A DNA stretch of 64,000 nucleotides from Candidatus Marinacidobacterales bacterium (GCA_965262245.1 OZ253507.1:2268690-2332689); one strand, 5' to 3'; shown: positions 7,308 through 29,676, numbered from the stretch's first letter. Notes: generated by a model from the sequence alone, not told the origin. Made by a program: numbers and translations.

Positions 7308-8812
<1,505 letters not shown>

Positions 8813-8828
8813 GTTCTTACAGACTTGG

Positions 8829-10871: not shown

Positions 10872-11553
10872 AGCAGACGCTCTATCTGGCTTGGCGCTAT
10901 CTGGCGTTTCACCCTCTGAAGACGATCATCCTGCTCACGTCGATCACGTTGATCCTTTATCTCCCTGTAGGCTTGCGGGTCCTCGTGAACCAAAGCTCGG
11001 AACAGCTGACGCGCCGCGCCGACGCGACGCCGCTCGTCGTCGGCTCGAAAGGGAGCCCACTCGAGCTCGTGCTCAACACCCTCTACTTCCGCTCAGACTT
11101 CCCCGAGCCGATGCGCTATAGCGAGGCGCAGGAAGTCCAGGATTCCGGGCTCGCGTCGATCGTGCCGATGTATGTTCGCTACCACTCTCGAGGCCATCCG
11201 ATCGTGGGGACGAGCGTTGAATATTTCGAACGTCGCGAGCTCGGGGTGCAGGTGGGGCGCCTGTTTACGTTTGTCGGCGAGTGCGTTCTCGGGGCGCGCG
11301 TCGCCGAAGCGTTGGGGGCGCATGTGGGAGACGCGGTCATCTCTTCGCCTGAGAACCTCTTCGACCTAGCGGGCGAATATCCCCTGAAGATGAGGATCGT
11401 GGGCATTTTGGCGCTCGAGGACAGCCCGGATGACGACGCGATCTTCGTGGACATCAAGACGACGTGGATCATTGAAGGGATCGGCCACGGTCACCAGGAT
11501 GTGACGCGCCGTGAGGCGGCGGGTGCCGTGTTGTCGCGCGAAGGCAATCGAGT
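10868..11553 (+). pseudogene. FtsX/MacB-type ABC permease, 3'-truncated by an IS fragment
   Basis: N-terminal TM helix and MacB-like periplasmic domain are present (MKQTLYLAWRYLAFHPLKTIILL..., VGSKGSPLELVLNTLYF). The C-terminal FtsX TM domain is missing; the ORF runs into the IS-end fragment at 11554. Confidence 0.65.
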
Positions 11554-11730
11554 GCACAATGTCGATGTGCATGGTTACTATATACTCTATTAAAGATTAT
11601 ATTACAAGAGTTATATGCGTTATTACATGGCTACAAAATGCAGGCGGAGTTCGTATCTCTATCGTTGTAACTCCTTGCAACTAAGGGTGCTTCACCGAAG
11701 AAAGAGAGGTTTTACCGAGGGGAACTTCAG
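11554..11730. mobile_element. Solo left-end fragment of the IS1634-like element
   Basis: 177 bp ~98% identical (2 differences) to 50475..50650, in the same orientation. It contains the IS terminus, the 5' UTR and the first 6 codons of the transposase (MHIDIV). No transposase body follows. Confidence 0.85.
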
Positions 11731-11745
11731 GCTAGAAGTTTCTTT

Positions 11746-12550
11746 TTGACAACTGATGGGAGGTTTCTCATGACCAGGTCGATGTTGGTGATCGGGATGG
11801 CGTTGGCGCTCGTGTCCCCCGCGCTCGCGCAGGACGGTCCGGCGCAGTTTCAGCAAATGGTTCACTTCACCGTCAAGCCCGGGATGGAGGACCAGTTCGA
11901 AGCGATCGTCAAGCAGTACGTCGAGGCCGCGGACAAGACAGGCGCGCCGAATCGCTGGAACGTGTTTCATCAGGGCCCCGGCGGCTCTCCGAACCATTAC
12001 CACCTCGTGACGAGCTTCAACGAGTTTTCGGAGCGAGATGCGTGGACAGGCCCTGGCGAGATGTTCATCGAGGCGCACGGTGAAGAGGAGTTCGCCGCCG
12101 CCAATCGCCGGTGGGCCGCAGCCGTTACGAACGTCCACATCACGCTCTCCACCCACCAGCCGGATCTGAGCACGAAGAAAGACCGCCGGAGGCATCCGGA
12201 ACCACTACCTCGCCACGAACACCGAGATCAGACCGGACAAACTCCAGGAGTACCGCTGGGCGATCGGGAAAATCCGCGAAGCTCAGGACAAGGCGACGGG
12301 GTCCCCCGCGGTGGTCGGGCGGCGAATCTCAGAGGGCAACCGCTGGGTGTTCCGGTCCATCACGGGGTTCGACAACGGCGCGGACCGCGACGGCTGGACT
12401 CCGTTCGGCGAGTTCATGTCCATCTACACGGACGAAGAGCGCGATCAGATCATGGACACGCTTCGCAGCACCATCGTCAGCAGCCGGTGGTACGAAGTAA
12501 CCCGCCGACCCGACCTCAGCCACACCGGTCCGGCCGGCTCGACGAACTAG
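11746..12550 (+). pseudogene. Secreted protein with two tandem homologous domains; frameshift between the domains
   Basis: RBS GGAGG before ATG 11770 and a signal peptide (MTRSMLVIGMALALVSPALA). Domain 1 is in the frame of ORF 11746..12576 (...NRWNVF..NEFSERDAWTGPGEMFIEAHGEEEF). Domain 2 (NRWVFRSITGFDNGADRDGWTPFGEFMSIYTDEERDQ) is in the frame of ORF 12311..12550. The switch is at AAGAAAGACC (about 12175..12185). The stop TAG 12548..12550 lies in the CTAG target duplication of the adjacent IS. Confidence 0.5.
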
Positions 12551-14241
12551 CTAGTTCCTGTCCAGAAACACCATAACTTGTGGTGTGCGAGAGACCTATC
12601 GAAGATGTGGGTATTATACGTTTTCGGAAGGGGCTTCGTGGGGTTGAGAGCGAATGAAAATCTTGGACGAAACGAGAGGCGAATTGTTAGCAATCCATGG
12701 CTATAAGGGGCGGAAGAGTAATAGTTGTTATCGTAATAGGTGTCTTGCCATCATCAGTAGGTTGCAGGTGATGATGGAACTCCATACGTACGATTTAAAA
12801 GAAGGCAATGAGCGCCATGTGCATCGGTCGAGGCCAAAGACTCGTTTCAAGAACGAAATGACGCCTTCGATTCCGCAGCGAAATCGCCGCAGGCGTTGAT
12901 AGACCCAGGAACTCTTGACCATATCGGTCACCGCGAAATGAGCCTTGGTAAAGGCAACATCTTCAACTCCCTTGCCTTTGATGGCTTCCAAGTTTGCCTT
13001 TGAAGAAAACGCGCCATCGTAGGCAACCTGGCGCGGGGCCCGTTCGTAGAGTTCGACTTGACGGTCGATCATGGTTTCCGCGAGAGTTGAATCGGACGGA
13101 TTTCCATCTAAGATCACGCAATCCAAAATCATCGAGGACGAGCCACCAGTCATACACACCTTGTGGCCGTAGAGAGTCTCGCGCCGGTCTTTGCGAATAA
13201 TGTCGGTGTGTTCTTCGAAGATAGAAACGACCTTCTCCTCCGCAGGCACACGCTCTTCGTCGATCACTCGGCGTTGGGTTTGGTTGATGACTTTCTTGGT
13301 GAGGACGAGAAAGTGCTCAAAATCCGCGGCGATCCTCTCCGCGCTCGCTCGCTTCACCGGCTCGGTCAAGCCCGACTCTTCCAACTGTGCTGCAACGCGT
13401 TGAGCGGAGCGATAGGTTTCTTCCGTCACCTTCAGTAGATCTCGATAGACGCGACGCCTTTGTTGCTTATCCTTCGCGTTCAGAACTCCCAGTCGACGTC
13501 TCTTCGCTCGACGCGTTCGATTGCCGAAGACCACTACTGTACCCAGCAGTTCGCGAGCTCGGCACATCACGCGAGTGAGAACCCGAACACAGTCATAAAG
13601 AAGCTCGGAGTCTGTAGGCGGATGAATGTTTGATTCCACTACCGTGCAGTCCACTCGTACTTTTCTTCCCTTTTCGATCCCAGCATCCTCGGCAACGCTC
13701 ACCAGCTCTCGGTTGATCTGCTCCAGCGTTTCGAACTTCACGGCTTTGATGTTTGCTGCTAGGGTCGACTTCGACGGGGTCGGCTCTATGATGCCGAGCT
13801 GGCAAAACGTCCGATAGCTTCGAGAGTCTGCCAAGTGAAACGCCAGCTCCCGATAGGTGAACTGATTCAGCTGCTTCACCAACAACGCCCGGAGAACCTG
13901 CTCCGCGCTCATTCCCCCACGACCAACATCGCTCCCTGCCGGTGGGGTGACCGACCTTAGGTCTTGCAGTACCAGCTCATTGAGCTTAGGATGGGCATCG
14001 AGTAGCGACGAGATCGTTTCGAGCTCGCGTGCGTGCTCCAGCTCCAGCCAGGGCTCACGTAGATTTGGCTGTGGGTTGATCGTTTTTCGCATTTAGGGCT
14101 GGTCTCCTTTGGAGTTAAGTCATTTAGAATCGGATGTTTTCAACGACACGATCCTAATCGACACCCCCTCAGAAGACTAGCCCTAAATTTGCGATTTCTC
14201 CTTTTTTCTCAATCCCTTACAGGCTTCAGGACGGGTACTAG
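12551..14241. mobile_element. IS5/IS1182-family-like insertion sequence (1,691 bp) with imperfect terminal IRs and a 4-bp CTAG target-site duplication
   Basis: Left IR CTAGTTCCTGTCCAGAAAC... at 12551; right IR (reverse complement) CTAGTACCCGTCCTGAAGC... ending at 14241. CTAG is present at 12547..12550 and again at 14242..14245. AT-rich ends flank a single DDE transposase ORF. Confidence 0.7.
12728..14092 (-). CDS. DDE transposase (IS5/IS1182-like)
   Basis: 454-aa ORF filling the IS. Typical N-terminal HTH region and a DDE-type C-terminal domain (YDGAFSS...). The family assignment is inferred from overall similarity. Confidence 0.75.
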   Translation of the reverse strand: MRKTINPQPNLREPWLELEHARELETISSLLDAHPKLNELVLQDLRSVTPPAGSDVGRGGMSAEQVLRALLVKQLNQFTYRELAFHLADSRSYRTFCQLGIIEPTPSKSTLAANIKAVKFETLEQINRELVSVAEDAGIEKGRKVRVDCTVVESNIHPPTDSELLYDCVRVLTRVMCRARELLGTVVVFGNRTRRAKRRRLGVLNAKDKQQRRRVYRDLLKVTEETYRSAQRVAAQLEESGLTEPVKRASAERIAADFEHFLVLTKKVINQTQRRVIDEERVPAEEKVVSIFEEHTDIIRKDRRETLYGHKVCMTGGSSSMILDCVILDGNPSDSTLAETMIDRQVELYERAPRQVAYDGAFSSKANLEAIKGKGVEDVAFTKAHFAVTDMVKSSWVYQRLRRFRCGIEGVISFLKRVFGLDRCTWRSLPSFKSYVWSSIITCNLLMMARHLLR

Positions 14242-14405
14242 CTAGATCACCTCGGCATGCCGCTTCCCGGTTCGGGCATCGGCTGTCCGTTCTTGTTGAC
14301 GTAGACGCTCTCCCACGGGCCGGTCGCGCGCACTTGGAGCGCGACCGGCTCCGTGGTCCACTCGTATGGCTGACAGCGTCGGGGTTCACGGACAACGTGC
14401 CGGCG

Positions 14406-14990
14406 TCAGCTCGATGCTCTCGCTCGGCCTGACGGCGTTGTCGTAGCCGCTCTGTTGATTGGACAGGTAGCCGTTTCTATCCGGGAAGGCCAACCGTGGG
14501 AGCCAGATTGAGCAAGATTTTGGTATCGAGGTAGGCATTTAGAATTTCCCTTGCGGGCGAGAGCGAACGCCGTATCGCGCTTGAGCGCCCACGAGCTCGA
14601 GCCATCGAAGACTTCACGAAACAGATCGTCGTTCGCGTCTTCGCCGCGGCGGCGCGCGAGAAGCTCGGCGCGCTGTGCGCGTGCACGCTCGACACGTACC
14701 GAATCCGGCCAACGGTCGAGCAGAATGGCATAGGCCTCGAGCGCTTCTTCGACGCGTTCGAGCTCCGCGAGGCAATAGCCGACGTAATACTGAGCGTCGT
14801 CGGCTTCCTCGCTCGCGCGGAAATCGCTCACGACGCGTCGGAACTGTGCGAGCGCCTCTTCGAAGCGTTCGTCGATCAAGTGCTCGCGTCCTTCGAGGTA
14901 GAGCTCCCGAGCCGATTCCTGGGCGTCGCTCGAGCAATAGCTGCCGAGCGTCAAGATGAGCAAGAACGAAAAGACCACGTGCTGCTTCAT
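14406..14990 (-). CDS. Secreted TPR-like protein (YbgF/BamD-like fold); C-terminus probably disrupted
   Basis: Signal peptide MKQHVVFSFLLILTLGSYCSS, then TPR-like pairs (ELYLEGREHLIDERFEEALAQFRRVV..., AQYYVGYCLAELERVEEALEAYAILLDRWPDS). The last ~60 aa of the ORF do not look protein-like. Confidence 0.4.
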   Translation of the reverse strand: MKQHVVFSFLLILTLGSYCSSDAQESARELYLEGREHLIDERFEEALAQFRRVVSDFRASEEADDAQYYVGYCLAELERVEEALEAYAILLDRWPDSVRVERARAQRAELLARRRGEDANDDLFREVFDGSSSWALKRDTAFALARKGNSKCLPRYQNLAQSGSHGWPSRIETATCPINRAATTTPSGRARASS

Positions 14991-14991
14991 T

Positions 14992-15864
14992 TCAGAATAC
15001 CTTTCTCGTTCCGCGCTCTTCGCGGCCGATCCAGCCAGATGCTTCGAGGGCTAGAGATACTTTTCCGTTCAAATCAATGGCGGCGAGCTGAGCCGGGAGC
15101 CGGCTCCCTTCGAGGCTCGCTTGAAACACGCCGACGCCCGTCCCGCTCGTCGAGCTCTCGACGGCAGCGAGCTCTTCGAGAAAGAGCTCGGCGCGCCGAA
15201 TGGTTCGAAGGAGGTCCCGGTCTTTGTCAGCATCGAGTGCGGTCTCGAGGAGTCTTCCGTCTCTCAAGAGCTCGCTTGCGCGCTCGCGGGTGAGGAACAG
15301 ATCTTCGGTGCTCACGACATCGACGGAAAGCTCCATCACGCCGACGAGAAGATCTTGGAGACCGTCGACGTAGCGCACACCGACGTCGGACAGAAGCTCG
15401 GCGCGCTCGAGCGCCAAGAGTGCTTCAGGTGAGATGTCGAGATTTTCGACCGCGGCGATCTCCGTGAGTCCGGCGCTCGGCGGTGTGTCGAGCCGGCCGA
15501 TGCCGATCACGAGAACCGCGGCCATCGCCACGAGCTCGTAAGCGCGGTGGGCTCGCGCCGGACTTTCGGCCGGGGCCGGGGGCTCGAGCCGCCGTTTCAG
15601 AGCGATCCACGCTTTTTCGGAGCGCTCGCCGTCGGCATTTTCAGCGGGCTCGGACCACCGATCTCCGTAGGGAAGCAGTGCCTCGGAAACGTTGCTGAGA
15701 GCGGCAAAGGCGACTTGCGCGTCGTCGAGCGCCTCGCGACAGCCGCGGCAGTGTTCGACATGTTCTCGAAGTGCGGCCTCAGCCGCTCGGTCGAGCTCGC
15801 CGAAAAGTAAGGATTCGAGCTGCGCTTCTCGATCTGTACAGGCTGTACAGGCTGCTGGATTCAT
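14992..15864 (-). CDS. Anti-sigma factor (zinc-finger, HxxxCxxC type)
   Basis: N-terminal LREHVEHCRGCREALDD is a ZAS-like zinc-binding motif. The gene lies immediately downstream of an ECF sigma gene; the C-terminal region is predicted helical. Confidence 0.5.
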   Translation of the reverse strand: MNPAACTACTDREAQLESLLFGELDRAAEAALREHVEHCRGCREALDDAQVAFAALSNVSEALLPYGDRWSEPAENADGERSEKAWIALKRRLEPPAPAESPARAHRAYELVAMAAVLVIGIGRLDTPPSAGLTEIAAVENLDISPEALLALERAELLSDVGVRYVDGLQDLLVGVMELSVDVVSTEDLFLTRERASELLRDGRLLETALDADKDRDLLRTIRRAELFLEELAAVESSTSGTGVGVFQASLEGSRLPAQLAAIDLNGKVSLALEASGWIGREERGTRKVF

Positions 15865-16426
15865 CGTCTGACTCCCTTTCGGGCTTTCAAGAAAACTCCG
15901 AGCTTTCGAATACCGCGAAAGACTTGCGTGCGTGCAGTGACCTCGTTGCAGCCGAGGGTTTCGGCAATGACGCGCATCGGAGCTCGTCGAAAAACCGCAT
16001 CGTCACGGCCGCGCGCTGGCCTTCGGGCAGACGCTCGAGGGCTGCTTTCACTGCTGCGGCGCTCTCCGCGCGCAGCAAGCTCGTTTCCGCTTCGGCAGGC
16101 GCGACGTCGATCGGCCTCTGCTCTTCGTCGATGCGGGCTCGCCGGCTCACTTTGCGCCTGTCCTCGATTGCGCGGTTGACGGCAATGCGGCAGAGCCAAG
16201 GATAGAAGCGCTCGGGCTCCCTCAGCCGAGGTAGCTCCTTCAGCGCGGCTACGTAAGCGTCCTGTACCATGTCTTCTGCCAAAATCCTGTCTCTGACGAC
16301 TCCAAAAACGACGTGCACCACGCGATGGTAATAGCGGCGGTGAAGCTCGCCAAAGCTATCCAAATCTCCGGAAAGCGTTCTTTCGACGAGCTTTACGTCT
16401 GCGTGTGCTTCAGCGAGCTCGGGCAT
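15861..16426 (-). pseudogene. ECF sigma factor with a -1 frameshift before region 4
   Basis: Region 2 (DMVQDAYVAALKELPRLREPERFYPWLCRIAVNRAIE) and LPEGQRAAVTMRFFDEL are in the frame of ORF 15887..16426. The region-4 HTH (MRVIAETLGCNEVTARTQVFRGIRKL) is in the frame of ORF 15861..16199. The shift is near 15975..15982. Confidence 0.6.
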
Positions 16427-16492
16427 GTTCGTAGATAGGGCGGTCCTGGGGCCGCTAACGTTGCACGAAAAAAGCGTGCTACCGAAAAAGAG

Positions 16493-17263
16493 TCAACTAT
16501 TCAAGCGCGCCCAGAGCGCTTCACAGGCCTCGACCGCGCGGAGCGGAAGCCGCACGTCGACTTCTCCCGAAAGCAATGTGACGCCCGGGTTGATTTCCAC
16601 CGTGGGCTTGCCATTGTGCTTCGCTTCGAGGACAGGGCGGGCGATATATGGAAAGGCGCTCGTCGTCCCGATCGAAAACACAACGTCGAAGCCCTTCTCG
16701 AGCTCCGTGTGCATGAGCTCGACTTTATGAAAGGGAAGAAGCTCTCCGAAGAGCACGACGTCGGGACGCAGATGCGTGCTGCATTCCGGGCAGGAGGGAA
16801 GCGGCGAGAGTACACTGTAGTCGTCCACCGTGGTCTGATAATCGCACGCCGTGCAGGAAAGGCTATGGATGTCGCCGTGGATATCAATGACGTTGCGAGA
16901 GCCGGCTTTCCGATGGAAGCCGTCGACGTTTTGCGTCAGGACCCAAGCGCGTTCGTAGCGATGCTCTGCCTCGGCGAGCATCTCGTGGGCTCGATTGAAG
17001 CTGGCGCCGCGACACGCGGCTTCGATCTGATGGATGTGCTTCCACGTGAGCGCGGGCTTCGTCTCCATCATCGTGCCCGAGAGCGCTTCTTCGATGGTGA
17101 TGCCTTCGGGCGTATCGACGTCTTCGTAGAGACCGCCAATGCCGCGATAAGTAGGGAGACCGGAATCGGCCGAGATCCCGGCCCCGGTGATGAAGAGAAC
17201 GCTCTTAGCGTCTCTCAGATAAGAAACGACTCTATCGAGCTCGTGTTCGAGGCTCGCCACCAT
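16493..17263 (-). CDS. cobB: NAD-dependent protein deacylase, Sir2 family (CobB-like)
   Basis: [15 protein letters not shown] Rossmann motif, QNVDGFH, and a Zn ribbon (CxxC...CxxC: SCTACDY...CPECS), across 256 aa. Confidence 0.85.
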
Positions 17264-17290
17264 ACTCGGGATTATCCTACAATCCGCTCT

Positions 17291-17820
17291 GTGGGTGTTC
17301 TGCTACTCGAAGAAGTCGACGAAGCGAAGCTCGGGAAGCTGCTCTTGCGCTACGGCTTGTCGCTGAACCACGTTCCCGCCGGCCGCGCGATACCTGGAAG
17401 TTATTGGGGCGATAGCGAAGCGGGTCTCGTCGAAGATCAGCTCTATGCTCGGCCCGACACGCCGATCCACTCCGTGCTGCATGAAGCGTCGCATTTCGTG
17501 TGCATGAACCCATCCCGCCGCGCCTGTCTCGAGCGCGACGCGGGCGGCGACGACGTTGAAGAGAGCGCGGTTTGTTATCTCCAGGTGCTCTTGTCCGATC
17601 ACATTTCGCAGATGGGCCGCGATCGAATGTTTCGCGACATGGATAGCTGGGCTACAGTTTTCGTTTGGGCTCGACGAAGAGCTGGTTCGACGAGGATGCC
17701 GAGGACGCGCTATCTTGGCTTCGAGCCGAAGGATTGGTGGATGAGAAGGAGGCCGCTCTTTGGGTCGGGGCAAGAATAAACTACCAAGTCTTTGTCGTAA
17801 TTCATCTGCTGCAGGGATAA
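17291..17820 (+). pseudogene. Small hypothetical protein with HExxH motif (HEASH); frameshift near 17645..17670
   Basis: The N-terminal part is in the frame of ORF 16616..17779 (...IHSVLHEASHFVCM...). A clearly protein-like C-terminus (STKSWFDEDAEDALSWLRAEGLVDEKEAALWVGARINYQVFVVIHLLQG) is in a different frame and ends at 17820. GTG start. Confidence 0.3.
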
Positions 17821-17920
17821 CGATCCGAGCCGGCGGGAAGCGGATCGCCTGGCGGGACCGCGTCAAATGGAGCTATTTGCAGCTCTTTGAGAGCTTGCCC
17901 ATGGAGACGTAGGCCATTGT

Positions 17921-18724
17921 GTGTTATGGTTACGAATTATGATTCGTAACTCTGATATTGACCGCCTGCGGGGGTTGTTTGCCAAACGTCTCATCGCCAC
18001 CATGGACATGCTCAAGAAGACAGTGGGGACTGTCGCTGACCTGACGGTGTTCCGGAAACTGAGAGAGCTCGACTACTGCACCAGCTATTCGCACCGTGGA
18101 CGTTTCTACACGCTCCGAGAGCTCGCGGAGTTTGATGAGAACGGCTTGTGGTGGATTCGGTCCGTCGGCTTTTCAAGTCGAGGGACACTCGTCGCCACGG
18201 CCGAAGGACTGGTGAACGCCTCCGAGGCTGGCTACGCGGTGGAGGAGCTTGATGCCATTGTTAGGGTTGGGACCAAAGATGTGCTGCCGAAATTGGCCTG
18301 GGAGAAAAGACTTCGCCGCACTCGGATTAGAAATCGCAATGTCTACTTCTCTCCGAAGAGGAGCATTCGTGAACAGCAAATAGCCAGCCGACGTGTTTGG
18401 GAAGCGCAACCCTCTGTGTCCAAGAGTATTGCTGCTCAAGACGTCCTACCCGATGAGCTCAAAGCAGCCATCATCCTTTTCTTTAGCCTGCTCGATGAGA
18501 GAGAAAGGCGTGTGTATGCGGGGCTTGAATCTCTCAAGTTAGGTTATGGCGGTGACCGCCAGATGGCGGAGATCCTCGGGCTCGACGTTAGCACTGTGGC
18601 TCGGGGCCGTCGCGAGCTACTTGAGCATGATGTGAATGTGGAGCGGGTCCGAAAAGCGGGTGCCGGCCGCAAAGCTGTCGAAAAAAAACGCCAGAAGTCA
18701 TCGCGGCGATCGAAGAACTTATGA
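17921..18724 (+). CDS. ISAzo13-like transposase OrfA (HTH part); GTG 17921 or ATG 17939 start
   Basis: The C-terminal part matches ISAzo13-family N-terminal HTH regions. It ends just after an A8 run (18681..18688) where the frame of OrfB takes over. Confidence 0.65.
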   Translation: MLWLRIMIRNSDIDRLRGLFAKRLIATMDMLKKTVGTVADLTVFRKLRELDYCTSYSHRGRFYTLRELAEFDENGLWWIRSVGFSSRGTLVATAEGLVNASEAGYAVEELDAIVRVGTKDVLPKLAWEKRLRRTRIRNRNVYFSPKRSIREQQIASRRVWEAQPSVSKSIAAQDVLPDELKAAIILFFSLLDERERRVYAGLESLKLGYGGDRQMAEILGLDVSTVARGRRELLEHDVNVERVRKAGAGRKAVEKKRQKSSRRSKNL

Positions 18725-19662
18725 AGTACGAGGTCGCTGGCGATCCCGTCAGCGGTCTGAGATGGACTCGCAAGACCACGAAAAAAATAGCTGCCGAACT
18801 CTCGGCCTTGGGCATTCGCGTCAGTCGCAAAACCGTCGCGAAGCTGCTTAAACAGATGAACTTCTCACTCCGGACCAACAAAAAGAAGATCTCGAATGGC
18901 TCTCCTCCAACTCGCGACGCCCAGTTCGCCAACATCACACAGCTACGGGAGCGCTTTAGCCGACGTGGCAATCCCATATTGAGTGTCGACACCAAGAAGA
19001 AAGAGTTGGTCGGACGCTTCAAGAACCCAGGACGCGTCTGGGCTCAAAAGAGCGATGCCGTCAACGACCACGACTTTCGCTCCATGGCAGATGGGGTCGC
19101 AATCCCATACGGCATCTATGATCTCCAGAGTAATCGAGGCACCGTGTATGTCGGAACGTCTTACGACACGTCGCAATTCGCAGTCGAATGCATCGAGAAG
19201 TGGTGGCGCTCTGAAGGTCAGAAGCGTTTTCCCGGCCGCAAACATTTACTTGTCGTAGCTGACACTGGCGGAAGCAACGGCGCAACCCGCCGTGCATGGA
19301 AACACGGCATCCAGCACAAGCTGTGCAACGAGCACGGTTTGGACGTCACGGTCGCACACTATCCACCAGGTGCGTCCAAGTGGAACCCAATCGAGCACCG
19401 CCTGTTCAGCGAGATTAGCAAGAATTGGGCGGGCTGGCCGCTCGATAGCTACGAAACCATCCTGAACTTCATACGGACCACCAAGACCAAAACGGGGCTC
19501 AAGGTTAACGCCCGTCTCGTCAAGAAGCAGTATCCTAAGGGCATCAAAATCTCGGACCCTGCGATGGCGCTACTCAACATCAAAAAATCCTCTTCCCTGC
19601 CGAAGTGGAACTACACGTTGCGTCCATCTAAGAATGGGAAATTATTTCTGCCACGGTCCTAA
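18721..19662 (+). CDS. ISAzo13-like transposase OrfB (DDE catalytic part)
   Basis: The frame continues upstream of its ATG as ...KKTPEVIAAIEELMKYEVAGDPVSGLRW, which matches the usually contiguous ISAzo13 transposase. This implies an OrfAB fusion by -1 frameshift at A_AAA_AAA. Confidence 0.7.
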   Translation: MKYEVAGDPVSGLRWTRKTTKKIAAELSALGIRVSRKTVAKLLKQMNFSLRTNKKKISNGSPPTRDAQFANITQLRERFSRRGNPILSVDTKKKELVGRFKNPGRVWAQKSDAVNDHDFRSMADGVAIPYGIYDLQSNRGTVYVGTSYDTSQFAVECIEKWWRSEGQKRFPGRKHLLVVADTGGSNGATRRAWKHGIQHKLCNEHGLDVTVAHYPPGASKWNPIEHRLFSEISKNWAGWPLDSYETILNFIRTTKTKTGLKVNARLVKKQYPKGIKISDPAMALLNIKKSSSLPKWNYTLRPSKNGKLFLPRS

Positions 19663-19685
19663 AGGCGACGCCGCGCGATTACGAA

Positions 19686-20651
19686 CTAGCTGACCATCGG
19701 AGCTTTGCTGTGGCGCTTCTCTTCCGGGCCCCTTCGATCGGACAAGAAATTGCTGCCTTCGGATTGCTTCAAGTAGCGTTTGATCTCCGCTGCGCGCTCG
19801 GCGAGGATGCGGTGGCTCTCGAACTTCTTCTCGTCGTTGTTGACCGCGGCGATGGTGATTGTCATGAGCGGATAGCGCTTGGGCTCGCCGGAGTGGGATT
19901 CGAGCGTAATACCTTGGTTCTGGCGGTCTTCCTCGGCGTAGAACTGGGCAATGCTCGCGTCGAAGATCGCCATGATGGCATGGCTGAGCTCGGCTTCTCT
20001 GTCCGGAGTCGTCACGAAGACGAAATCGTCGCCTCCGATATGTCCGACGAAATCCTGCTCTCCGCCCATTTTGTTCACGGTTTGCACGATCAACTGAGAC
20101 GTGTGCAACAGCACGCGATCGCCGGCCGCGTAGCCGTAGCGATCGTTATAGGCCTTGAAGTTGTCCAGATCGCAGTAACACACGGAGAAGGTGACGCCGT
20201 TCTCCAGCCGTTCGCGCACGAGTTGCTCGATCACGAGATTGCCCGGGAGCTTCGTGAGCGGATTCACATTCGCTTGCTCTGACGTCCGTCGGATGAGCGT
20301 CTCGACCCGGGCCTTGAGCTCCTCGGGATCGATGGTCTTCATCACGTAGTCGTCGGCGCCCTTGGCGAGGCCCTCGATCTTCCGGCGCACCTGGTCTTCC
20401 ACCGTCAACATAATGATGGGGATGAAGCGCGTAGCGAAATGCTGACGGAGCTCCTGGCAGACGTCCGGTCCCGTCATGTCTCCGAGATGCACATCCATGA
20501 GGATCAGATCGGGAAGCTCGCGCTTGGCTTTCTCCACGGCCACCGCACCGCTCGCCGCGGTGATCACTCTGTAGTCCCATTCCAGCAACAGCTCCCCGGT
20601 GAGCTGCAGACAATCCACGTCGTCATCAACGATCAAGACTTTATCGGCCAT
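19686..20651 (-). CDS. Response regulator with receiver domain and GGDEF-type output (motif GGDDF)
   Basis: REC domain (LIVDDD...DLILMDVHLGDMTG...), then a diguanylate-cyclase-like domain (CYCDLDNFKAYNDRYGYAAGD...VGHIGGDDFVFV). It is an orphan, flanked by IS elements. Confidence 0.8.
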   Translation of the reverse strand: MADKVLIVDDDVDCLQLTGELLLEWDYRVITAASGAVAVEKAKRELPDLILMDVHLGDMTGPDVCQELRQHFATRFIPIIMLTVEDQVRRKIEGLAKGADDYVMKTIDPEELKARVETLIRRTSEQANVNPLTKLPGNLVIEQLVRERLENGVTFSVCYCDLDNFKAYNDRYGYAAGDRVLLHTSQLIVQTVNKMGGEQDFVGHIGGDDFVFVTTPDREAELSHAIMAIFDASIAQFYAEEDRQNQGITLESHSGEPKRYPLMTITIAAVNNDEKKFESHRILAERAAEIKRYLKQSEGSNFLSDRRGPEEKRHSKAPMVS

Positions 20652-20799: not shown

Positions 20800-22226
20800 A
20801 GGATATCCTGAATCTAGTTGAAATCGGTGAGTGACTCCCTTCAAGATCGTCGGTGTCAAAGCTGGCGATCAAAAAGAAAGGAGCCACCCGGTGAGAGCAG
20901 ATACGAAGAAGAGAAAGAATGCAACACAGATGCTGAGGGCGACGCAGGAGCAAGAGTGGTGGGCGGATCAAGTTGTGCATGTGATGCTGGAGGGCAAGCG
21001 AGCGCTGGACGCCGCGATGCTCGATGTCGGACGCCTGGTAGCTGAGACGCTCATGTACATGGAGCGCGAAGAGAGATCTGGGCCAGACTACCATCCTACG
21101 TCGTCCGGGCTTCGCAAATGGGCGAGTCAACGTGGGTCGATCTATGTCGGTGACCAGAAGCTCCCTGTCGAGCACCCTCGATTGCGGGGCCCGGAGGGTG
21201 AGGTCGGGCTGAGAACCTACGAGCAGCTCAAGAATCGCGGGGGCTTTTCGGAGGAACTCCTGTCGGAGGTGCTTCGGGGAATGTCTGCTCGCAAGTACGA
21301 AGAGACGGTGACGGCGGCAGGCAAGGCTTTCGGTGTGACGCCGAGCTCGGTGTCCCGCCATCTGGTCGAGGCGACGGCGAAGCAGCTGAAGCAGTTCCAG
21401 GAGCGCAGTCTCGAAGAGTTTCCGCTCTTCGCGATGTACCTAGACACGGTCCACCGCGGCGGTCAGGCGTTCGTGGTCGCGCTCGGCGTGGACCGTGAAG
21501 GGAAAAAGCTCCCCCTGGGCTTCTGGGAAGGGGCGACAGAGAACCACGAGATCTGCGAGGAATTGCTGGAAGAGTTGGAGCGACGGGGGTTAAAGCTCTC
21601 CAAACGGATCCTCTGGGTAACCGATGGTGGCGGGGGGATCATCAAGGCGCTCAAAGACCGATACGGTAAGAAGCTCATCCACCAGCGGTGTACTTTGCAC
21701 AAAGACCGCAACATCCAGCGCCACCTGCCCAAACGCTACCGCAAGCAGGCACACCACCTCTTCGCGACTGCCTTGGAGCAGAACAGCTACAAGGACGCGA
21801 AGAAGATGTTGCAGGAGTTCGAGCGCTGGCTTCGCGACATCAACGAGTCGGCGGCAGACTCACTCCTCGAGGCACTCGAGGAGGTGCTGATGCTCCACAA
21901 GTTGAAGGTCCCCGCTCTACTGCGCCAGAGCCTGCACTCGACGAATCCTATAGAGAGTATGTTCTCCATGGTTCGTAGTTGCGAGCGCAACATCAAACGC
22001 TACCGTAACAGCAAAATGCGCCAGCGATGGCTCGCCGCTGTGCTGCTGCACTGCGAACAACAGTTCAGACGAGTCAAGGGGCACGCATCCATCGACGTAG
22101 TGGTTGCGGCCATCGATGCGATCCAACGAGAGGACGAGATGCCTGAGGCCGCGTAAGGTCAGGGGCGTAGAGCTGGAAATGACCACGAGTCGCTTATGAT
22201 GGTTTCAACTAATTCCTTGACATCCT
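20800..22226 (+). mobile_element. IS256-family insertion sequence (~1.43 kb) with imperfect 25-bp IRs and a 9-10-bp target duplication
   Basis: IRL GGATATCCTGAATCTAGTTGAAATC (20801..20825); IRR reverse-complement GGATGTCAAGGAATTAGTTGAAACC (22201..22225). Flanking direct repeat CACCAAAATG at 20790..20799 and 22227..22236. Confidence 0.85.
20930..22156 (+). CDS. IS256-family (mutator-type) transposase
   Basis: Motifs FAMYLDTVHRGG, LWVTDGGGGIIKAL, QRCTLHKDRN, STNPIESMFSMVR. ~409 aa from ATG 20930; the ORF also has an upstream GTG at 20831. Confidence 0.85.
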   Translation: MLRATQEQEWWADQVVHVMLEGKRALDAAMLDVGRLVAETLMYMEREERSGPDYHPTSSGLRKWASQRGSIYVGDQKLPVEHPRLRGPEGEVGLRTYEQLKNRGGFSEELLSEVLRGMSARKYEETVTAAGKAFGVTPSSVSRHLVEATAKQLKQFQERSLEEFPLFAMYLDTVHRGGQAFVVALGVDREGKKLPLGFWEGATENHEICEELLEELERRGLKLSKRILWVTDGGGGIIKALKDRYGKKLIHQRCTLHKDRNIQRHLPKRYRKQAHHLFATALEQNSYKDAKKMLQEFERWLRDINESAADSLLEALEEVLMLHKLKVPALLRQSLHSTNPIESMFSMVRSCERNIKRYRNSKMRQRWLAAVLLHCEQQFRRVKGHASIDVVVAAIDAIQREDEMPEAA

Positions 22227-23620: not shown

Positions 23621-24922
23621 CTATACGGATCCCCCAAACGACCTCTCGAAGAGCGCTGTAATCGCCTGACGTCCTGACTCGGAGAGCTCCCGCGTCCCCG
23701 TTCCGGTGAAGCGAGTCTTTTGGATCGTCGGGGCGTCGACTTTCTCCCAGGTCGTAACACTCTCAGTCCACCGGTACCAGCTGTTCTTGGTCTGGTCGAA
23801 GACGTGAAGCCGCTTGTGGAAGTGGCGCGCAAGCTCGGCGCCCCAGCCGGTGCCGCCTTTGACGGTTTGATCCTCGACGATCTCACCGACGACGAAGACT
23901 TCGCCCGCCGTCGCGACCTGATGCCAGATGGTTTTCAGCAAGCGCTGGAACAGCTCGGTCTTTGGGAACGAACGATGAAGCTGCGCCTTGATGTAGGTTT
24001 CGCTGACGCTTCCCCGCTCGAGCTCGTCTTCGCTGAGCTCGACGATACCGCGTGTGCGCGCCGTGGCCCGGCCCGGATAGGAGTAATGAATCTCGTTCAT
24101 TCCCCATCTCTCCGCGGCCTCTCCGAACGCCGCCTCGCTTCCTTTGGCGCCTCCCGAGAGTAACGTGTACGAGGATGACGGGAGCTTGCCGAGAGCGCTC
24201 GACGCATCATCGCCAGCGATCCGCATCGTGTCCGTGTCGAGATGGAGGTGCGTGTCTTCGAGCTCTGTGCAGTCGTGGTCCTTGAGCAAGCGCACCGAAG
24301 CGTGGGTGCCTTCGGGCTCTAGAAAGATGGCGACGTCGATCACGTCCGCGTAAGCGTCGCAAGGCGGCAAGATGCTCGTCGGCTTTTCAGGCGTGCCCTC
24401 GCGGTGAGTTTGGGCGGTCATCCAAAGCTCGGCATCGAGCCTCTTTGCCGCGAGCTTGAAAGCTCCGAGCTCGGCCGCGCGCTCGACGACCGTGCCGCAT
24501 TCCCAATCGAAGCCGTCGATCAAGATGGCCTTGGGCGCGAAGCCGGCTTTGTCCGCGTAGAGGGAGAGCACGTCGTCGAGGCGCTCATGCGAGAACCCGT
24601 TATTGGCATAGGCCTGGATGATGCGGTTTGCGTTCACGAGCTGGCGCACTTGAGCGAGATTCTCGAACTCGGTGAGCTTTGCCAAGTCGTCGAACAGAGC
24701 GTCGTACCACGACTGTACATGATCGAGGTCTTGTCCGAGTGCTACATGGAGGACGGGACGCTCGCGCATCGCGTCATCGAGTCCAATTTGGACGAGGAAC
24801 GCAGTCTTGCCGACACCGGCGCGTGCCATCACGACGCCGAGCTTCCCCGCGCCCAAACCACCTTTGGTCGAGCTCTCCAGAATCCGGAGAGGGCTCTTTT
24901 CGTTGACTTGCTTTCGAAACAT
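23621..24922 (-). CDS. KaiC/RecA-superfamily ATPase fused to a C-terminal LOG/SLOG-like Rossmann domain
   Basis: N-terminal: Walker A VVMARAGVGKTAFLVQIG, Walker B AILIDGFD. C-terminal: LOG-family hallmarks LLSGGAKGSEAAFGEAAERWG (GGxxGxxxA...G), KGGTGWGAELARHFH (PGGxGTxEE-like) and HVFDQTKNSWYRW. The domain assignment is motif-level only. Confidence 0.5.
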   Translation of the reverse strand: MFRKQVNEKSPLRILESSTKGGLGAGKLGVVMARAGVGKTAFLVQIGLDDAMRERPVLHVALGQDLDHVQSWYDALFDDLAKLTEFENLAQVRQLVNANRIIQAYANNGFSHERLDDVLSLYADKAGFAPKAILIDGFDWECGTVVERAAELGAFKLAAKRLDAELWMTAQTHREGTPEKPTSILPPCDAYADVIDVAIFLEPEGTHASVRLLKDHDCTELEDTHLHLDTDTMRIAGDDASSALGKLPSSSYTLLSGGAKGSEAAFGEAAERWGMNEIHYSYPGRATARTRGIVELSEDELERGSVSETYIKAQLHRSFPKTELFQRLLKTIWHQVATAGEVFVVGEIVEDQTVKGGTGWGAELARHFHKRLHVFDQTKNSWYRWTESVTTWEKVDAPTIQKTRFTGTGTRELSESGRQAITALFERSFGGSV

Positions 24923-25041
24923 TGTTGCGGTCTCCTTTGTGCTTAGTGCTCGCTCTCTCTTCGCTCGCTCAGCGTGCTTCGGCGCGACAAGCGCGCCGGG
25001 CTCGCTCCGCTCGCGCAGGCGACCGTATTTTCATCCGCCTG

Positions 25042-25559
25042 CTAGCGTGCCATCGCTTTTTCTTTTTCTTGCTTTGCCACCAGCTCTTCTTCGATGGCCC
25101 CGGGAACCGGCAAATAGCGTGAGAACTCCATGGTGAAATCGGCTTTGCCTTGCGTTGCGGAACGGAGCGTCGTGGCGTAGCCGAACATCTCGGCCAGCGG
25201 AACCTCGGATTCCGTGATGGTGGTGCCCCCATTCTCCTGCTGCCCGATGATCGCGCCGCGGCGCTGCATGAGCGTCGTCAAGACACCGCTCGCATGATCG
25301 GTGGGGGCTTCGACGACGACCCGCATGATGGGCTCGAGCACTTTTGGCTGGCTCCGGTCATAGGCTTCGCGCCACGCCCCGCGCGCCGCTTGCTGGAACG
25401 CGACGTCGGACGAGTCTACCGTGTGGTGGGCGCCATCGTTGATCACGACACGCGCGTTGACAACCGGTGCTCCGATCTTTCGGCCTTTCTCGAGCATCGA
25501 CTTGAAGCCTTTCTCCACCGCCGAGATGAACTGGCGCGGGATGACGCCGCCTTTGATAT
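25042..25559 (-). pseudogene. fusA: EF-G (fusA-like) C-terminal portion (domains IV-V), separated from the N-terminal portion by the IS1595 R-M element
   Basis: Reading from the TSD: IKGGVIPRQFISAVEKGFKSMLEKG...DGAHHTVDSSDVAFQQAARGAW...AEMFGYATTLRSATQGKADFTMEFSRYLPVP matches EF-G domains IV-V. It continues the frame broken at 28048. Confidence 0.85.
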
Positions 25560-25589
25560 GGGAATTATATATTTGACGCCACCAGCCTA

Positions 25590-26282
25590 CTAGAGACGTT
25601 CCTTCTTGAGGTACAGCCTACAGACCGAGGAAGGTGCCACGCGAAACTTGGTGCCGTGGTTTCTGAGCCCTGGGCTCCCTGGCTTGGCTTCCCTAGCATC
25701 GAAGTCAATCACGATCTCGCCTCGCAGAATCTCATTCACGAAGTCGGCCAGGTGAAAGGTCTCGTAGGCGTCGGCCTGACGGAAGCGCACCTTTTGTCCG
25801 TCCTTCTCCCCCTTGACCATGATGAGCCGTCGTAGTTTGGATCCCGCTACCGCCATCAACTCCTCATGGGACCAATACGGGATGAGCCCATTGCCTCGAA
25901 TCGGTCGGACAACGATCTGGCCTCCACTGTCTTCCACTCGGAAGCGATCGCTCTTGCCCTTGATCGTGTGCCGGAAACTCATTCTCCCCTTTGCGTCTTT
26001 CCAGCCGTGCTTGCGAACCATGTAGCGGAGGATGGTTGGTGGGCCAGTTGGCTCCTTGTGAAATAGCGTCAAGAGATTGGTTCTCCGTGTGAACCACTTC
26101 AACTCCCAGCCTACAGAGTCGGGAATATCCACAGAGCCCGTTGTGACGCCTAGCAAGCTCTCCAGGAACATCCCAGGGGCACCAGTTCCTCCGAACTTCT
26201 CCGGCAGGTCATACCAGCCAGCGGAGATAACCCCACGTAACCGCTCAAATAGTTCGCGCTTTGTGCGCGGCGGGGAAGTCAC
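25590..26282 (-). CDS. MutH/Sau3AI-family Type II restriction endonuclease (predicted GATC-type)
   Basis: Matches to E. coli MutH: GAPGMFLESLLGVTTGSVDIPDSVGWELKW (MutH [32 protein letters not shown]), KLRRLIMVKGE, and C-terminal RLYLKKERL (MutH GFYLKKNF). GTG start overlaps the MTase stop (GTGA). Confidence 0.7.
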   Translation of the reverse strand: MTSPPRTKRELFERLRGVISAGWYDLPEKFGGTGAPGMFLESLLGVTTGSVDIPDSVGWELKWFTRRTNLLTLFHKEPTGPPTILRYMVRKHGWKDAKGRMSFRHTIKGKSDRFRVEDSGGQIVVRPIRGNGLIPYWSHEELMAVAGSKLRRLIMVKGEKDGQKVRFRQADAYETFHLADFVNEILRGEIVIDFDAREAKPGSPGLRNHGTKFRVAPSSVCRLYLKKERL

Positions 26283-27067
26283 TGCACAATCCGACGAACG
26301 GCGGAGAGCCGTTCTCTGGCCAGCTTGCAGTATTCCTCGGAGATATCGAACCCGATCCACTTCCGTTTCTCTGCCTCGGCCGCAATCGCCGTAGATCCGG
26401 AGCCCATGAACGGGTCAAGAACGATCTTGCCTTTCGTCGATGCGATACAGCGTTGGGCCAATTCAATGGGGAAGGGTGCTGGGTGTGGGTTGTTGTTCTC
26501 TTGTGGAATGCTCCAGATGTCTCCGGCGGCGTTCGCCTTTGGCACCAGCTTAAAATCTGGTTTGGCGATTAGGTAGATAACCTCGTAGGTAGGCAGGAAA
26601 TAGCCTGGATTGAAATTGATACCTCCCTTGCGTTGCCAAATGACGATCTGCCGGACGGGGAAGCCTTCCATGATATCAGCCCTGTCTTGGAGTAGCCCGC
26701 CCTGGATGCGCCACTTGTGGTTGTAGAAAATGGCTCCATCTTTGCGCAGCACGCGCATCATCGCCTTCAAGCACTTCTTCTGCCACTCGACATAATCATC
26801 ATGCGGCATGGCGTCACCGTTGGAAGCGTAGCCCTTGATCAACGCGGCTTTTGGCCACTTCCCACCGCTTCCGTTTTTGAGACCGTTCCCCGTGCTGTTC
26901 TTGATGTTGTAGGGCGGACTGGTGACGATCGCATCTACCGATAACGCGGGCAGTTTGGCCATGAGTTTGAGGCAATCGCCAGGATGCACCTTGTCGAGCC
27001 ACGGCTCCATCAAGTGCGGAGCAGTGCGCGTGACGGCCTCAGTTATGAGCTGGCTAAAGGTTGTCAT
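26279..27067 (-). CDS. DNA methyltransferase, N6-adenine/N4-cytosine type (beta class; motif IV SPPY before motif I FxGxG)
   Basis: DAIVTSPPY (motif IV), IVLDPFMGSGSTAIAAE (motif I), N4/N6 methylase fold. ATG 27065..27067 overlaps the transposase TGA (ATGA). Confidence 0.85.
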   Translation of the reverse strand: MTTFSQLITEAVTRTAPHLMEPWLDKVHPGDCLKLMAKLPALSVDAIVTSPPYNIKNSTGNGLKNGSGGKWPKAALIKGYASNGDAMPHDDYVEWQKKCLKAMMRVLRKDGAIFYNHKWRIQGGLLQDRADIMEGFPVRQIVIWQRKGGINFNPGYFLPTYEVIYLIAKPDFKLVPKANAAGDIWSIPQENNNPHPAPFPIELAQRCIASTKGKIVLDPFMGSGSTAIAAEAEKRKWIGFDISEEYCKLARERLSAVRRIVQ

Positions 27068-27987
27068 CGAATCAGATCCGAATAGGTCAGACGAAGGCCG
27101 GACGATGCGCCTAGCAAGGTGTCTACTCTTTCGCCGCCCTTGATCTTCCCAAGGTTGAATCGCGCCGAGAATTCGGCGAGATAACGGTGCAGGTGTTTCC
27201 AAGTGAAGTGGTGAAAGGTGCCGATGTAGCCGCGTTTCAGTAGCGCCCAGAAGGATTCTATCCCGTTAGTATGCGCTTGCCCGCGCACGTACTCGCCCAC
27301 AGAGTGGCGGACGCTCTCATGGGAGTAGAGGCGATCTAGACCGAGATAAGCGCTGTGATCGTCCGTGTAGAGAACGGAACCAGCCGCGACATTGGATTGG
27401 ACAAAACCATGAAGCACCATCTGGCTCGTGTTGGGGATGGCTTTTACCTTCACCTTCCCCGCGCGCGAGCGGGCACCGGCAACTGGCTGTTTACCTACGG
27501 GGCCGCGACCCTTGATCTTCTGGCGACGCTTATCGGCGTGCATGTTCCGCGCCTTGCCGCCAATGAACGTCTCATCGACTTCGACGATCCCATCAAACGG
27601 TCCTCCGTACGAGTCCATTTGATCTAGGACTTCTCGGAGCCGACCCAGCATAAACCACGCCGTCTTTTGCGTTACGCCTATCTCTCGGGCCAATTGAGTA
27701 GACGGGATACCCTTTCTGTTGGAAGTGATCAACCATGCCGCGACAAACCATTTACGGAGCGGGAGACGGCTTTCCTCGAAGATCGTCCCCTTTCGGACTG
27801 AGAACTCCTGGCGACAATCGGCGCACTTGTAACCGCCTCGACGGACGTTGTAGAACTTGCGCGTGGAAACGCACCAAGGGCAAACGATACCTTTGGGCCA
27901 GCGCTGGCGCTCCAAGTGCTCGATGCAGCTTTTCTCGGTTGAGAAGGCTTCGCGTAGTGCGTATAGGCTGTCGTAGGTAAGTTCCAT
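27064..27987 (-). CDS. IS1595-family transposase (ISXO2-like, N-terminal zinc ribbon + DDE)
   Basis: 307 aa: zinc ribbon CPWC...CADC, DDE core EVDETFIGG...VLYTDDHSAYLGL...HSVGEYVRGQAHTNGIESFWALLKR. The start is 60 bp inside the right IR. Confidence 0.9.
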   Translation of the reverse strand: MELTYDSLYALREAFSTEKSCIEHLERQRWPKGIVCPWCVSTRKFYNVRRGGYKCADCRQEFSVRKGTIFEESRLPLRKWFVAAWLITSNRKGIPSTQLAREIGVTQKTAWFMLGRLREVLDQMDSYGGPFDGIVEVDETFIGGKARNMHADKRRQKIKGRGPVGKQPVAGARSRAGKVKVKAIPNTSQMVLHGFVQSNVAAGSVLYTDDHSAYLGLDRLYSHESVRHSVGEYVRGQAHTNGIESFWALLKRGYIGTFHHFTWKHLHRYLAEFSARFNLGKIKGGERVDTLLGASSGLRLTYSDLIR

Positions 27988-28047
27988 GCCCTATCTCCTA
28001 CCACCACTATAGCCTGTTTAGCTGGTGGCGTCAAATATATAATTCCC

Positions 28048-29676
28048 TTTGATATTGTCGACGAACTCGAAGTCACTATCGGTGTTCGGCTCCAGATAGC
28101 CGGCCACGCGACCATATTGGCCCGAACCACCGGTTTGCTTCTTGTGGACGTAGTCGAAAAAGACTTGTTTGCCGAGGGTCTCCCGATACGCGACCTGAGG
28201 CGGCGACACTTCGACTTCGACATTGTATTCGCGCTTCATCCGCTCGATATAGACCTCGAGCTGAAGCTCGCCCATGCCGTGGATGACGGTCTCTCCCGAT
28301 TCGGGATCCGCGCCCGCTTTGAAGCTCGGGTCTCTTTCGTAAACCGCTGCAGAGCCTTCGTCATGTTGACTTGCGATTTGTTGTCGACGGGCTTGACGGA
28401 CAGCGAGATCACCGGCTCAGGAACGTGGATCGACGTCATCGCTAATTTGCGCTTGCCGTCGGTGAAGGTATCGCCGGAGCTGCAATCGAGACCGAAGATC
28501 GCGGCTATATCGCCGGGGCCGGCGTCTTCGATCTCCTCCATCTCGTCAGCGTGCATTCTAACGAGCCGGCCGACTTTTGTCTGCTTCCCCGTGCGCGTAT
28601 TCGTGACGAACAAGTCACGGTCGAGATACCCTTGATAGACGCGCACATAAGTGAGCTGTCCGTAGGCGGCCGTCTTCGAGCTTGAAAGCGAGCGCGACGA
28701 TTCCTTTGTCCGGACTCGGATCGAGCGGGATTCTAGCTTCGTCCTTGCTCGTGAAGTCGATGGCCTCGTTCTTGATGTCGGGAGGGCTCGGGAGGTATTG
28801 GACCACGGCGTCCAGAAGAGGCTGGACGCCTTTGTTCTTGTAGGCCGAGCCGACGAGCACCGGGGTCATTTGGAGTGCGAGGGTCCCTTCGCGCACGGCC
28901 CGATAGATCTGCTCTTCGGTGACTTGCTCTTCGAGGATCGCTTCCATGAGCTCATCGGAGAACATCGACACCGCATCGAGCATCTCTTCGCGAAACGCCG
29001 AGGCTTTCTCCTCGAGCTCGGTGGGGATCGCTTTCTCGACGACCCTCTCCCCGTTCTCGCCCTCGAAGAAGAGAGCTTTCATGCGGATGAGGTCCACGAC
29101 GCCTTTGAAAGCGTCCTCGAGGCCGATGGGGATTTGGAGCAGTACAGGGTTGTGGCCGAGCTTCTCGCGGAGTTGATCGCGCACGCGCACCGGGTCCGTG
29201 CCCACGCGATCGCACTTGTTGACGAAGGCGATGCGCGGCACGTGGTAGCGGTTCATCTGCCGGTCCACCGTATAGGACTGGCTCTGAACGCCCGCGACCG
29301 AGCGCAGGACGAGCACGGCGCCGTCGAGGACGGCGAGGCTCCGCTCCACCTCGATCGTGAAATCGACGTGCCCTGGAGTGTCGATGATGTTCACGTGATG
29401 GCCGAGCCAGCTGCAATGGGTCGCGGCGCTCGCGATGGTGATGCCGCGCTCGCGCTCGCGCTCCATCGAGTCCATCTTCGCACCGACGCCGTCTTTGCCT
29501 TTGACGTCGTGAATGGCGTGAACGCGGTCCGTGTAAAAGAGAATCCGCTCGGTCAGCGTTGTCTTGCCGCTGTCTATGTGAGCGGAAATCCCGATATTTC
29601 GGATGGTGTTCAGATCTTTGATCACCTTCTTACCTCGTTTGAAACGGGTGACAGGCCAGACCTCAACAACACGCAC
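28048..29676 (-). pseudogene. fusA: EF-G (fusA-like) N-terminal portion (G domain, domains II-III, start of IV), with two additional internal frameshifts
   Basis: G-domain motifs [27 protein letters not shown]. Domain [10 protein letters not shown]...AGDIAAIFGL in a second frame (shift at the C-run about 28663..28671). FEFVDNIK in a third frame ends at the TSD. ORFs 28615..29676, 28236..28646 and 28018..28275. Confidence 0.85.

Follow-up and report, generated by a model that had tools for sequence, protein, structure and literature searches.

What does a protein do that joins a RecA-like P-loop domain to a SLOG-type Rossmann domain, and does its gene stand alone? This question was raised by a gene in a stretch of 64,000 nucleotides of Candidatus Marinacidobacterales bacterium (GCA_965262245.1 OZ253507.1:2268690-2332689), the whole of which is called the window below. 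An earlier note on this DNA had taken the gene for an orphan with no obvious operon partners. The single 433-aa open reading frame (ORF) that it described was confirmed, together with a ribosome-binding site:

23621..24922, minus strand: RecA-like/SLOG fusion gene, 433-aa ORF with ATG start, stop codon included
24932..24937, minus strand: ribosome-binding site AAGGAG, read directly from the sequence, 9 nt ahead of the ATG

A search returned more than 1370 full-length homologues of ~430 aa, the best at an E-value of 1e-288, which is well beyond chance, and an alignment of 36 of them (56-92% identity) showed many invariant columns in both halves; the gene is therefore real and under selection. 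It is not an orphan. We found that it consistently follows, as the second gene of an operon, the gene for spdEFG1, a paralogue of elongation factor G (EF-G) that resembles mitochondrial EFG1 and is specialised in translocation, and that this pairing occurs in several bacterial phyla. We read the protein as the SLOG form of a widespread, unnamed RecA-like operon partner of spdEFG1 with a role in translation control rather than in DNA recombination, and we give this reading a probability of roughly 0.55.

A two-gene operon with spdEFG1

We analysed 80 genome loci, taken from 586 matching stretches, that encode relatives of the fusion protein at 39-73% identity. The loci belonged to Acidobacteriota (including Vicinamibacterales) and Myxococcota (including Sorangium, Polyangium and Anaeromyxobacter). 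All 80 loci had an EF-G homologue as the immediate upstream neighbour on the same strand, so the EF-G paralogue that had been noted upstream of the gene is its conserved partner. The distance from the EF-G stop codon to the partner ATG had a median of 14 bp and was 50 bp or less in 69 of the 80 loci. Across the two phyla, identity to the reference was 63-85% for EF-G and 39-73% for the partner. The most divergent fused representative that was placed (P0232) likewise followed an EF-G gene.

The upstream gene was of one particular type. A three-residue KDG insertion in switch I was present in 69 of the 71 loci that held a full upstream EF-G, and the EF-G of the window carries it as well. This insertion marks the spdEFG1 subfamily, the bacterial relatives of mitochondrial EFG1 (Margus et al., PMC3150367; PMC4342817). 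Clustering of the ORFs in the 80 loci showed no recurrent neighbours beyond the gene pair itself. The flanking genes were ordinary, with a few lineage-specific neighbours (Ser/Thr kinases, YchJ-like, HupE, Sua5 and HDOD proteins), and the idea of a defence island, for which a survey of gene neighbourhoods had been proposed, found no backing in them.

In a reverse test, metagenome contigs were scanned for the spdEFG1 switch-I motif GKDGVGAxMD, and 63 loci were counted in which the 3' end of EF-G was present and followed by at least 700 nt. A homologue of the N-terminal, RecA-like domain lay directly downstream on the same strand in 48 of these 63 loci. Among the 46 complete partner ORFs, 44 were stand-alone proteins of 217-244 aa without a SLOG domain and 2 were fused, and no separate SLOG gene was found in the loci with a stand-alone partner. 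The SLOG domain is therefore a lineage-specific C-terminal addition to an older EF-G/RecA-like pair, found in Acidobacteriota and Myxococcota among the genomes sampled. The conserved unit, as these results showed, is spdEFG1 with a RecA-like protein of ~232 aa, in Spirochaetes and many uncultured lineages. The stand-alone partner had more than 2200 relatives, including proteins of cultured Spirochaetes that are annotated as 'hypothetical' or 'KaiC-like domain-containing protein'. In the cultured Treponema primitia ZAS-2 (L216) it starts 5 bp after EF-G.

Two further gene orders were observed. In T. primitia ZAS-2, a 1076-aa WD40/beta-propeller repeat protein (5725-8955) starts 22 bp after the partner on the same strand. 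On a metagenome contig of 34% GC content (L149), rpsL and rpsG take the place of the RecA-like partner behind a KDG-type EF-G, on its strand, an order that is unusual compared with the classical str operon.

The two genes were also found joined. The 738-aa protein P0145 was identical on four independent marine contigs (L091-L094, 6001-8217). Its residues 7-295 form an EF-G G/G' domain, 43% identical to EF-G, that is degenerate: the P-loop Lys and DTPGH are lost and NKCD is kept. EF-G domains II-V are gone, and an acidic linker leads into a complete RecA-like/SLOG partner, 43% identical to the window protein. The retention of this pseudo-GTPase domain suggests, from one case, a physical association of the partner with the G/G' region.

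Taken together, the loci showed that spdEFG1 and the RecA-like P-loop protein make up a tight, ancient two-gene operon. The pairing is described in none of the papers searched, and the main study of EF-G gene context covered only orthologues of E. coli genes and would have overlooked such a partner.

The RecA-like and SLOG domains

An AlphaFold2 model of the 433-aa protein was built from an alignment (predicted local distance difference test score 85.8, predicted template modelling score 0.83). The model, fold comparison and weak Pfam and PHROG matches bore out the two-domain architecture given in the earlier note, a RecA-superfamily N-terminal half and a SLOG C-terminal half, and all four sequence strings quoted there were found in place. 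Residue conservation was counted in 59 representatives of the fused form, which share 28-58% overall identity, and in 47 partners:

24209..24922, minus strand: RecA-like (DnaB/gp41/KaiC-like) P-loop domain, residues ~1-238, ending in the L-D-x-x-T motif that closes stand-alone homologues
24803..24826, minus strand: Walker A motif ARAGVGKT, residues 33-40; G36, G38 and K39 invariant in 47/47 partners
24731..24736, minus strand: G63-Q64, at the position of the DnaB-family catalytic Glu in an alignment with gp41 (PDB 8g0z)
24506..24529, minus strand: Walker B strand AILIDGFD, residues 132-139; D136 in 46/47 partners
23624..24196, minus strand: SLOG domain with beta-hairpin extension and terminal helix, residues 243-433
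24101..24154, minus strand: first SLOG glycine loop GGAKGSEAAFGEAAERWG, residues 257-274, holding the GxE signature; G261, E263, F266 and G267 in 59/59 fused representatives
23825..23860, minus strand: second SLOG loop KGGTGWGAELAR, residues 355-366; GGTGW in 59/59 and E363 in 57/59 fused representatives

The N-terminal domain has a RecA-like alpha/beta core fold. Pfam and NCBIfam gave sub-threshold matches alone for this half (AAA_25, KaiC and DnaB_C, residues 9-162): KaiC (PF06745) scored 19.1 bits against a cut-off of 26.6, NF006799 scored 11.7 against 408, and DnaB_C (PF03796) scored 15.1 against 27 and covered only residues 20-59. The PHROG match was to 'DnaB-like helicase' (2.6e-9). The Walker motifs, whose conservation the earlier note had proposed to check, were kept across homologues, as was the GGTGW loop. 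K39 was present in 55 of the 59 fused representatives, and D136 in 55, with Glu in the other 4. H59 and W167 were invariant and the C-terminal L-D-x-x-T nearly so in the 47 partners.

The residues expected of a DnaB-family motor were not conserved in the same way. In the alignment with gp41, G63 fell opposite the Glu that is replaced by Gln in PDB 8g0z (ISMEM vs ISMQM); we take this Glu (E227) to be the catalytic Glu of the DnaB family, with its DnaB counterpart in SLEM. Column 63 was variable, with G/S/D/R/A/T in the fused representatives and G/N/D/A/T/E in the partners, so that neither set showed a conserved catalytic Glu there. The neighbouring column 64, which is Gln in the window protein (Q64), held D or E in only 26/47 partners. 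Of the candidates for an Arg finger, R211 was found in only 28/59 fused representatives and K214 in 38/47 partners. The loop at residues 176-195, presumably the place of the DnaB H4 DNA-binding loop, was variable, with indels, and poorly conserved. A Pfam scan of the 433-aa protein showed no DnaB N-terminal domain. Judged by its residues, the domain looks more like an ATP-binding switch or adaptor than like a helicase. A helicase role was rejected on the missing catalytic Glu, and a role as a KaiC clock protein on the single domain, as against the tandem CI-CII arrangement.

The C-terminal half had no Pfam or NCBIfam match in the window protein, and a sequence-profile search of the SLOG domain against the PDB returned nothing even at E 10; fold comparison alone succeeded. 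The domain showed a Rossmannoid fold, a Gly-rich GxD/E loop after strand 1 and a second loop of the GGxG type, and G257, G261, E263 and G356-G357-T358-G359 were invariant in the alignments. The GxD/E signature is a feature of the YpsA clade (PMC6459960). After the top hits, fold comparison returned exclusively SLOG proteins (ShosA/DprA, TM1055, MCP, YpsA, DprA, LOG and YgdH). Among 16 relatives, 2 had weak Pfam matches to YAcAr (PF10686) or cpYpsA (PF12694), at E 0.0054 and 0.05, the window domain had none, and the homologue P0021 had a precomputed PF10686 match. PHROG matched the C-terminal half to 'DprA-like DNA recombination-mediator' (4e-7); the DprA family of Pfam and NCBIfam gave no match, and its SAM and winged-helix accessory domains were absent. 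The SLOG domain is a sibling family of the cpYpsA/YAcAr/YpsA clade that has no Pfam or NCBIfam model.

At the 28-58% overall identity of the fused representatives, the SLOG pocket was near-invariant (G261, E263, F266, G267, R289, R317, W333, H334, GGTGW, E363, K370, D376, Q377, G407, G409 and R411). The catalytic motif of LOG is PGGxGTxxE, in which the Glu is catalytic, and the string GGTGWGAE of the window protein has the same spacing, with the conserved E363 at the position of that Glu. The domain could accordingly be read as an enzyme in its own right, a LOG-like N-glycosidase or a hydrolase processing ADP-ribose, that acts on a modified nucleotide or on a modification of EF-G or the ribosome and is targeted by the RecA-like domain. 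Several features agree with this: E363 is kept as Glu in the EF-G-linked proteins and is mostly Gln in the phage homologues, many of the invariant residues are polar (R289, R317, H334, K370, D376, Q377 and R411), the LOG and YgdH enzymes are structural neighbours, and the characterised chemistry of SLOG proteins is cleavage of N-glycosidic bonds (PMC9503650). Yet there was no Pfam LOG match and the Z scores to LOG structures were only 6-7.6. A purely enzymatic role seems to us unlikely, although it is the likeliest of the three alternatives that we weighed.

A profile search of 1.84 billion representatives with the SLOG domain returned 2198 proteins in three groups: RecA fusions, stand-alone proteins of ~180-195 aa, and giant phage proteins of 2800-4900 aa without any Pfam domain. 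One bacterial stand-alone homologue (L083, 8001-8555) shares 35% identity with the window domain and follows rpsF-rplI-dnaB on a contig with several split genes, where a noisy assembly is possible. Another, in a huge phage of 462 kb (L084, LR756500.1, 6001-6546), sits in a block with an RNA ligase, an AAA_33 protein with faint HD matches (possibly an RNA-repair kinase), a DFP-like protein and a major-vault-protein-like gene. In the N4-like Klebsiella phage Pylas (L095, NC_049444.1) the domain (12001-12513) lies inside the virion RNA polymerase gene (9040-20499, at about residues 988-1158) and is 58% identical to the crAss-type query. The annotated phage collection held the same domain in crAss-like phages and many jumbo phages. 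Most of the viral SLOG domains surveyed in published comparisons have been placed in the YpsA-like clade and predicted to sense or process ADP-ribose derivatives (PMC9503650; PMC7824862).

A disrupted EF-G gene in the window

The EF-G gene upstream of the fusion gene in the window was found to be interrupted, with the following arrangement from its 5' end to the partner:

28048..29676, minus strand: 5' part of the disrupted spdEFG1-type EF-G, with the KDG switch-I insertion
25560..28047, minus strand: IS1595-family element of 2488 bp within the EF-G gene, with perfect 27-nt terminal inverted repeats
25552-25559 and 28048-28055: 8-bp target duplication TTTGATAT flanking the IS1595 element
25042..25559, minus strand: 3' part of the disrupted spdEFG1-type EF-G (end of domain IV, domain V, stop), matched by tblastn to residues 529-702 of the L004 EF-G at 74% identity
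24923..25041, minus strand: 119-bp spacer from the EF-G stop to the partner start, with no terminator-like site on this strand

The same 119-bp spacer was present in two 99%-identical relatives (L081 and L082). A consensus-based scan showed no promoter-like site in it, and the consensus may not suit this phylum. An Rfam scan of the whole window gave no match. By Pfam, the IS1595 element carries a transposase and, as cargo, an MvaI/BcnI-type restriction endonuclease and an N4/N6 DNA methyltransferase, a complete type II restriction-modification pair. The element was absent from the 99.3%-identical metagenome contig L081, which has an intact 695-aa EF-G, so the insertion is recent. Compared with L081, the 5' part of EF-G also has a +1 indel (an extra C) at about 28666 and a -1 indel at about 28332, which leave 111 codons out of frame; these are either real pseudogene decay or assembly errors.

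The spdEFG1 gene of the window is a pseudogene, which shows that this organism can do without it; another EF-G is presumably present. The ORF of the partner remains intact, and its 4 synonymous and 4 non-synonymous differences from the 99% relative are too small a sample to judge decay. A second mobile element lies nearby: a Mutator/IS256-family transposase (PF00872) at 20831-22156 on the plus strand, 1.5 kb downstream of the fusion gene.

The restriction-modification element that struck this locus is one of the facts that could be cited for a conflict or immunity module, in which the SLOG domain would sense a phage-induced signal of the cyclic-ADP-ribose type and the EF-G paralogue, as effector or decoy, would arrest or protect translation. 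In Thoeris-type systems, SLOG domains of the YpsA-like clade serve as sensors, and they are common in conflict systems; the SLOG family of the fusion protein also occurs in jumbo phages and inside injected virion RNA polymerases. However, the conservation is housekeeping-like, with the pair kept in every one of the 80 loci amid ordinary genes and without defence islands, most lineages carry the partner without the SLOG sensor, and PADLOC gave no meaningful match, the only one being a marginal P-loop match to a DinG model (E 0.0035). We rank such a module below the enzymatic alternative and consider it improbable.

Proposed role and comparison with known systems

The reading that we prefer remains that of a translation partner of spdEFG1. 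The RecA-like domain, which keeps Walker A and B, shows no conservation of a catalytic acid or a nucleic-acid loop and has no clear Arg finger, would bind ATP without being a motor. The partner would then serve EF-G as an adaptor or switch that depends on a nucleotide, with the contact probably on the G/G' domain, perhaps in the manner in which the single-domain KaiC-like proteins ArlH/FlaH and RadB modulate their partner NTPases. In the fused form, the SLOG pocket is predicted to bind, and possibly to cleave, a ligand derived from a nucleotide (for example a purine nucleotide or a derivative of ADP-ribose), and through this pocket the ligand may govern how active or how available this EF-G paralogue is.

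Several observations weigh against this reading. The proposed interaction of the two proteins rests on synteny and one fusion, and the nearest named relatives of both halves are DNA-transaction proteins (DnaB/gp41 and the 'DprA-like' PHROG). In 15 of the 63 spdEFG1 loci of the reverse test the partner was missing. A comparison of 47 partner-linked with 15 partner-less spdEFG1 sequences gave only 3 scattered discriminating columns, and a partner-specific EF-G signature was not localised. As far as is known, translocation by Borrelia spdEFG1 and mitochondrial EFG1 needs no such factor, and the partner therefore cannot be an obligatory cofactor. In the window itself, the partner ORF has stayed intact beside an inactivated EF-G, which could reflect an EF-G-independent role or the recent date of the disruption.

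The least probable of the alternatives is a mediator of DNA recombination, repair or replication, in which a DnaB/RadA-like ATPase would work with an ssDNA-binding, DprA-like SLOG domain and EF-G would be co-transcribed for growth-rate co-regulation alone: replicative helicases and RAD51 paralogues are the closest structures and profiles of the N-terminal domain, both PHROG names point to DNA, DprA structures are among the SLOG fold matches, a stand-alone SLOG gene follows dnaB in L083 and some phage SLOG homologues are fused to helicases (PMC9503650), but the equivalent of the catalytic Glu and the loop at 176-195 are unconserved, the DnaB N-terminal domain, the DprA accessory domains and a Pfam DprA match are all lacking, the N-terminal domain is acidic (isoelectric point ~5-5.7) and the C-terminal one near neutral, no recombination genes recur nearby, and co-regulation alone hardly explains linkage in 80/80 loci, ~14-bp spacing across phyla and fusion to an EF-G G domain. 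All three alternatives, the enzymatic, the conflict and the DNA one, fit the genomic context less well than a translation partner does.

A wider proposal can be built on the translation-partner reading. spdEFG1, the counterpart of mitochondrial EFG1 and the main translocase of Spirochaetes, would have an ancient RecA-like NTP-binding partner, and the gain of SLOG would wire translocation to a signal derived from NAD or ADP-ribose or to another nucleotide signal. Phages and hosts would act on the same ligand, as is suggested by the entry of the same SLOG family into cells inside phage virion RNA polymerases. We hold this proposal to be doubtful as a whole, while giving it more credit than any of the three alternatives above.

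The paralogues of EF-G are well catalogued, and a dedicated protein partner for the spdEFG1/mitochondrial EFG1 lineage was absent from the papers searched. Translocation would gain a further level of regulation through a conserved ATP-binding partner that sometimes has a nucleotide-sensing SLOG domain. Culturable Treponema and Myxococcota make this open to experiment, and a SLOG family known otherwise from injected phage proteins would be placed in a cellular setting for the first time. In annotation, gene context could supply names for more than 3500 proteins that currently carry the labels 'hypothetical' or 'KaiC/GvpD/RAD55 family ATPase'.

Compared with known systems, the protein belongs to a new, unmodelled family within two known superfamilies, and its link to a translation factor is strongly conserved and, it seems, has not been described before. 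The earlier note had likened the fusion to DprA and the RecA that it loads. This likeness found no support: the RecA-fold half is DnaB/KaiC-like and not RecA, it is older than the SLOG addition and tied to EF-G, and the other domains and the Pfam signature of DprA are missing. Of the earlier interpretation, the identities of the two domains stood, and the orphan status and the DprA/RecA link fell away. The closest SLOG proteins are those of the cpYpsA/YAcAr (YspA)/YpsA clade (PF12694, PF10686; PDB 3imk, 2nx2). The window domain lies below the Pfam thresholds and, unlike them, carries an additional helical insert as well as a beta-hairpin and a helix at its C-terminus.

FusB and FusC offer a likeness in concept only, as the partner, too, would be a small EF-G-dedicated protein that modulates EF-G on the ribosome. 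Their folds are unrelated, FusB-type proteins are resistance determinants, and nothing here bears on fusidic acid. In comparison with T4 gp41, DnaB, T7 gp4 and Twinkle, the window protein has no N-terminal helicase domain, its residue at the catalytic-Glu position is Gly and variable in the family, the DNA-binding loop is not conserved, and a conserved Arg finger was not evident. The single-domain KaiC-like/RecA-like adaptor ATPases (archaeal ArlH/FlaH, RadB and PH0284-type) are similar in the proposed mode of action. The window protein has no detectable membership in their sequence family, as its KaiC score indicates, and its family has its own invariant H59, W167 and C-terminal L-D-x-x-T. 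Their partners are an archaellum ATPase or a recombinase, whereas the partner here is a translational GTPase.
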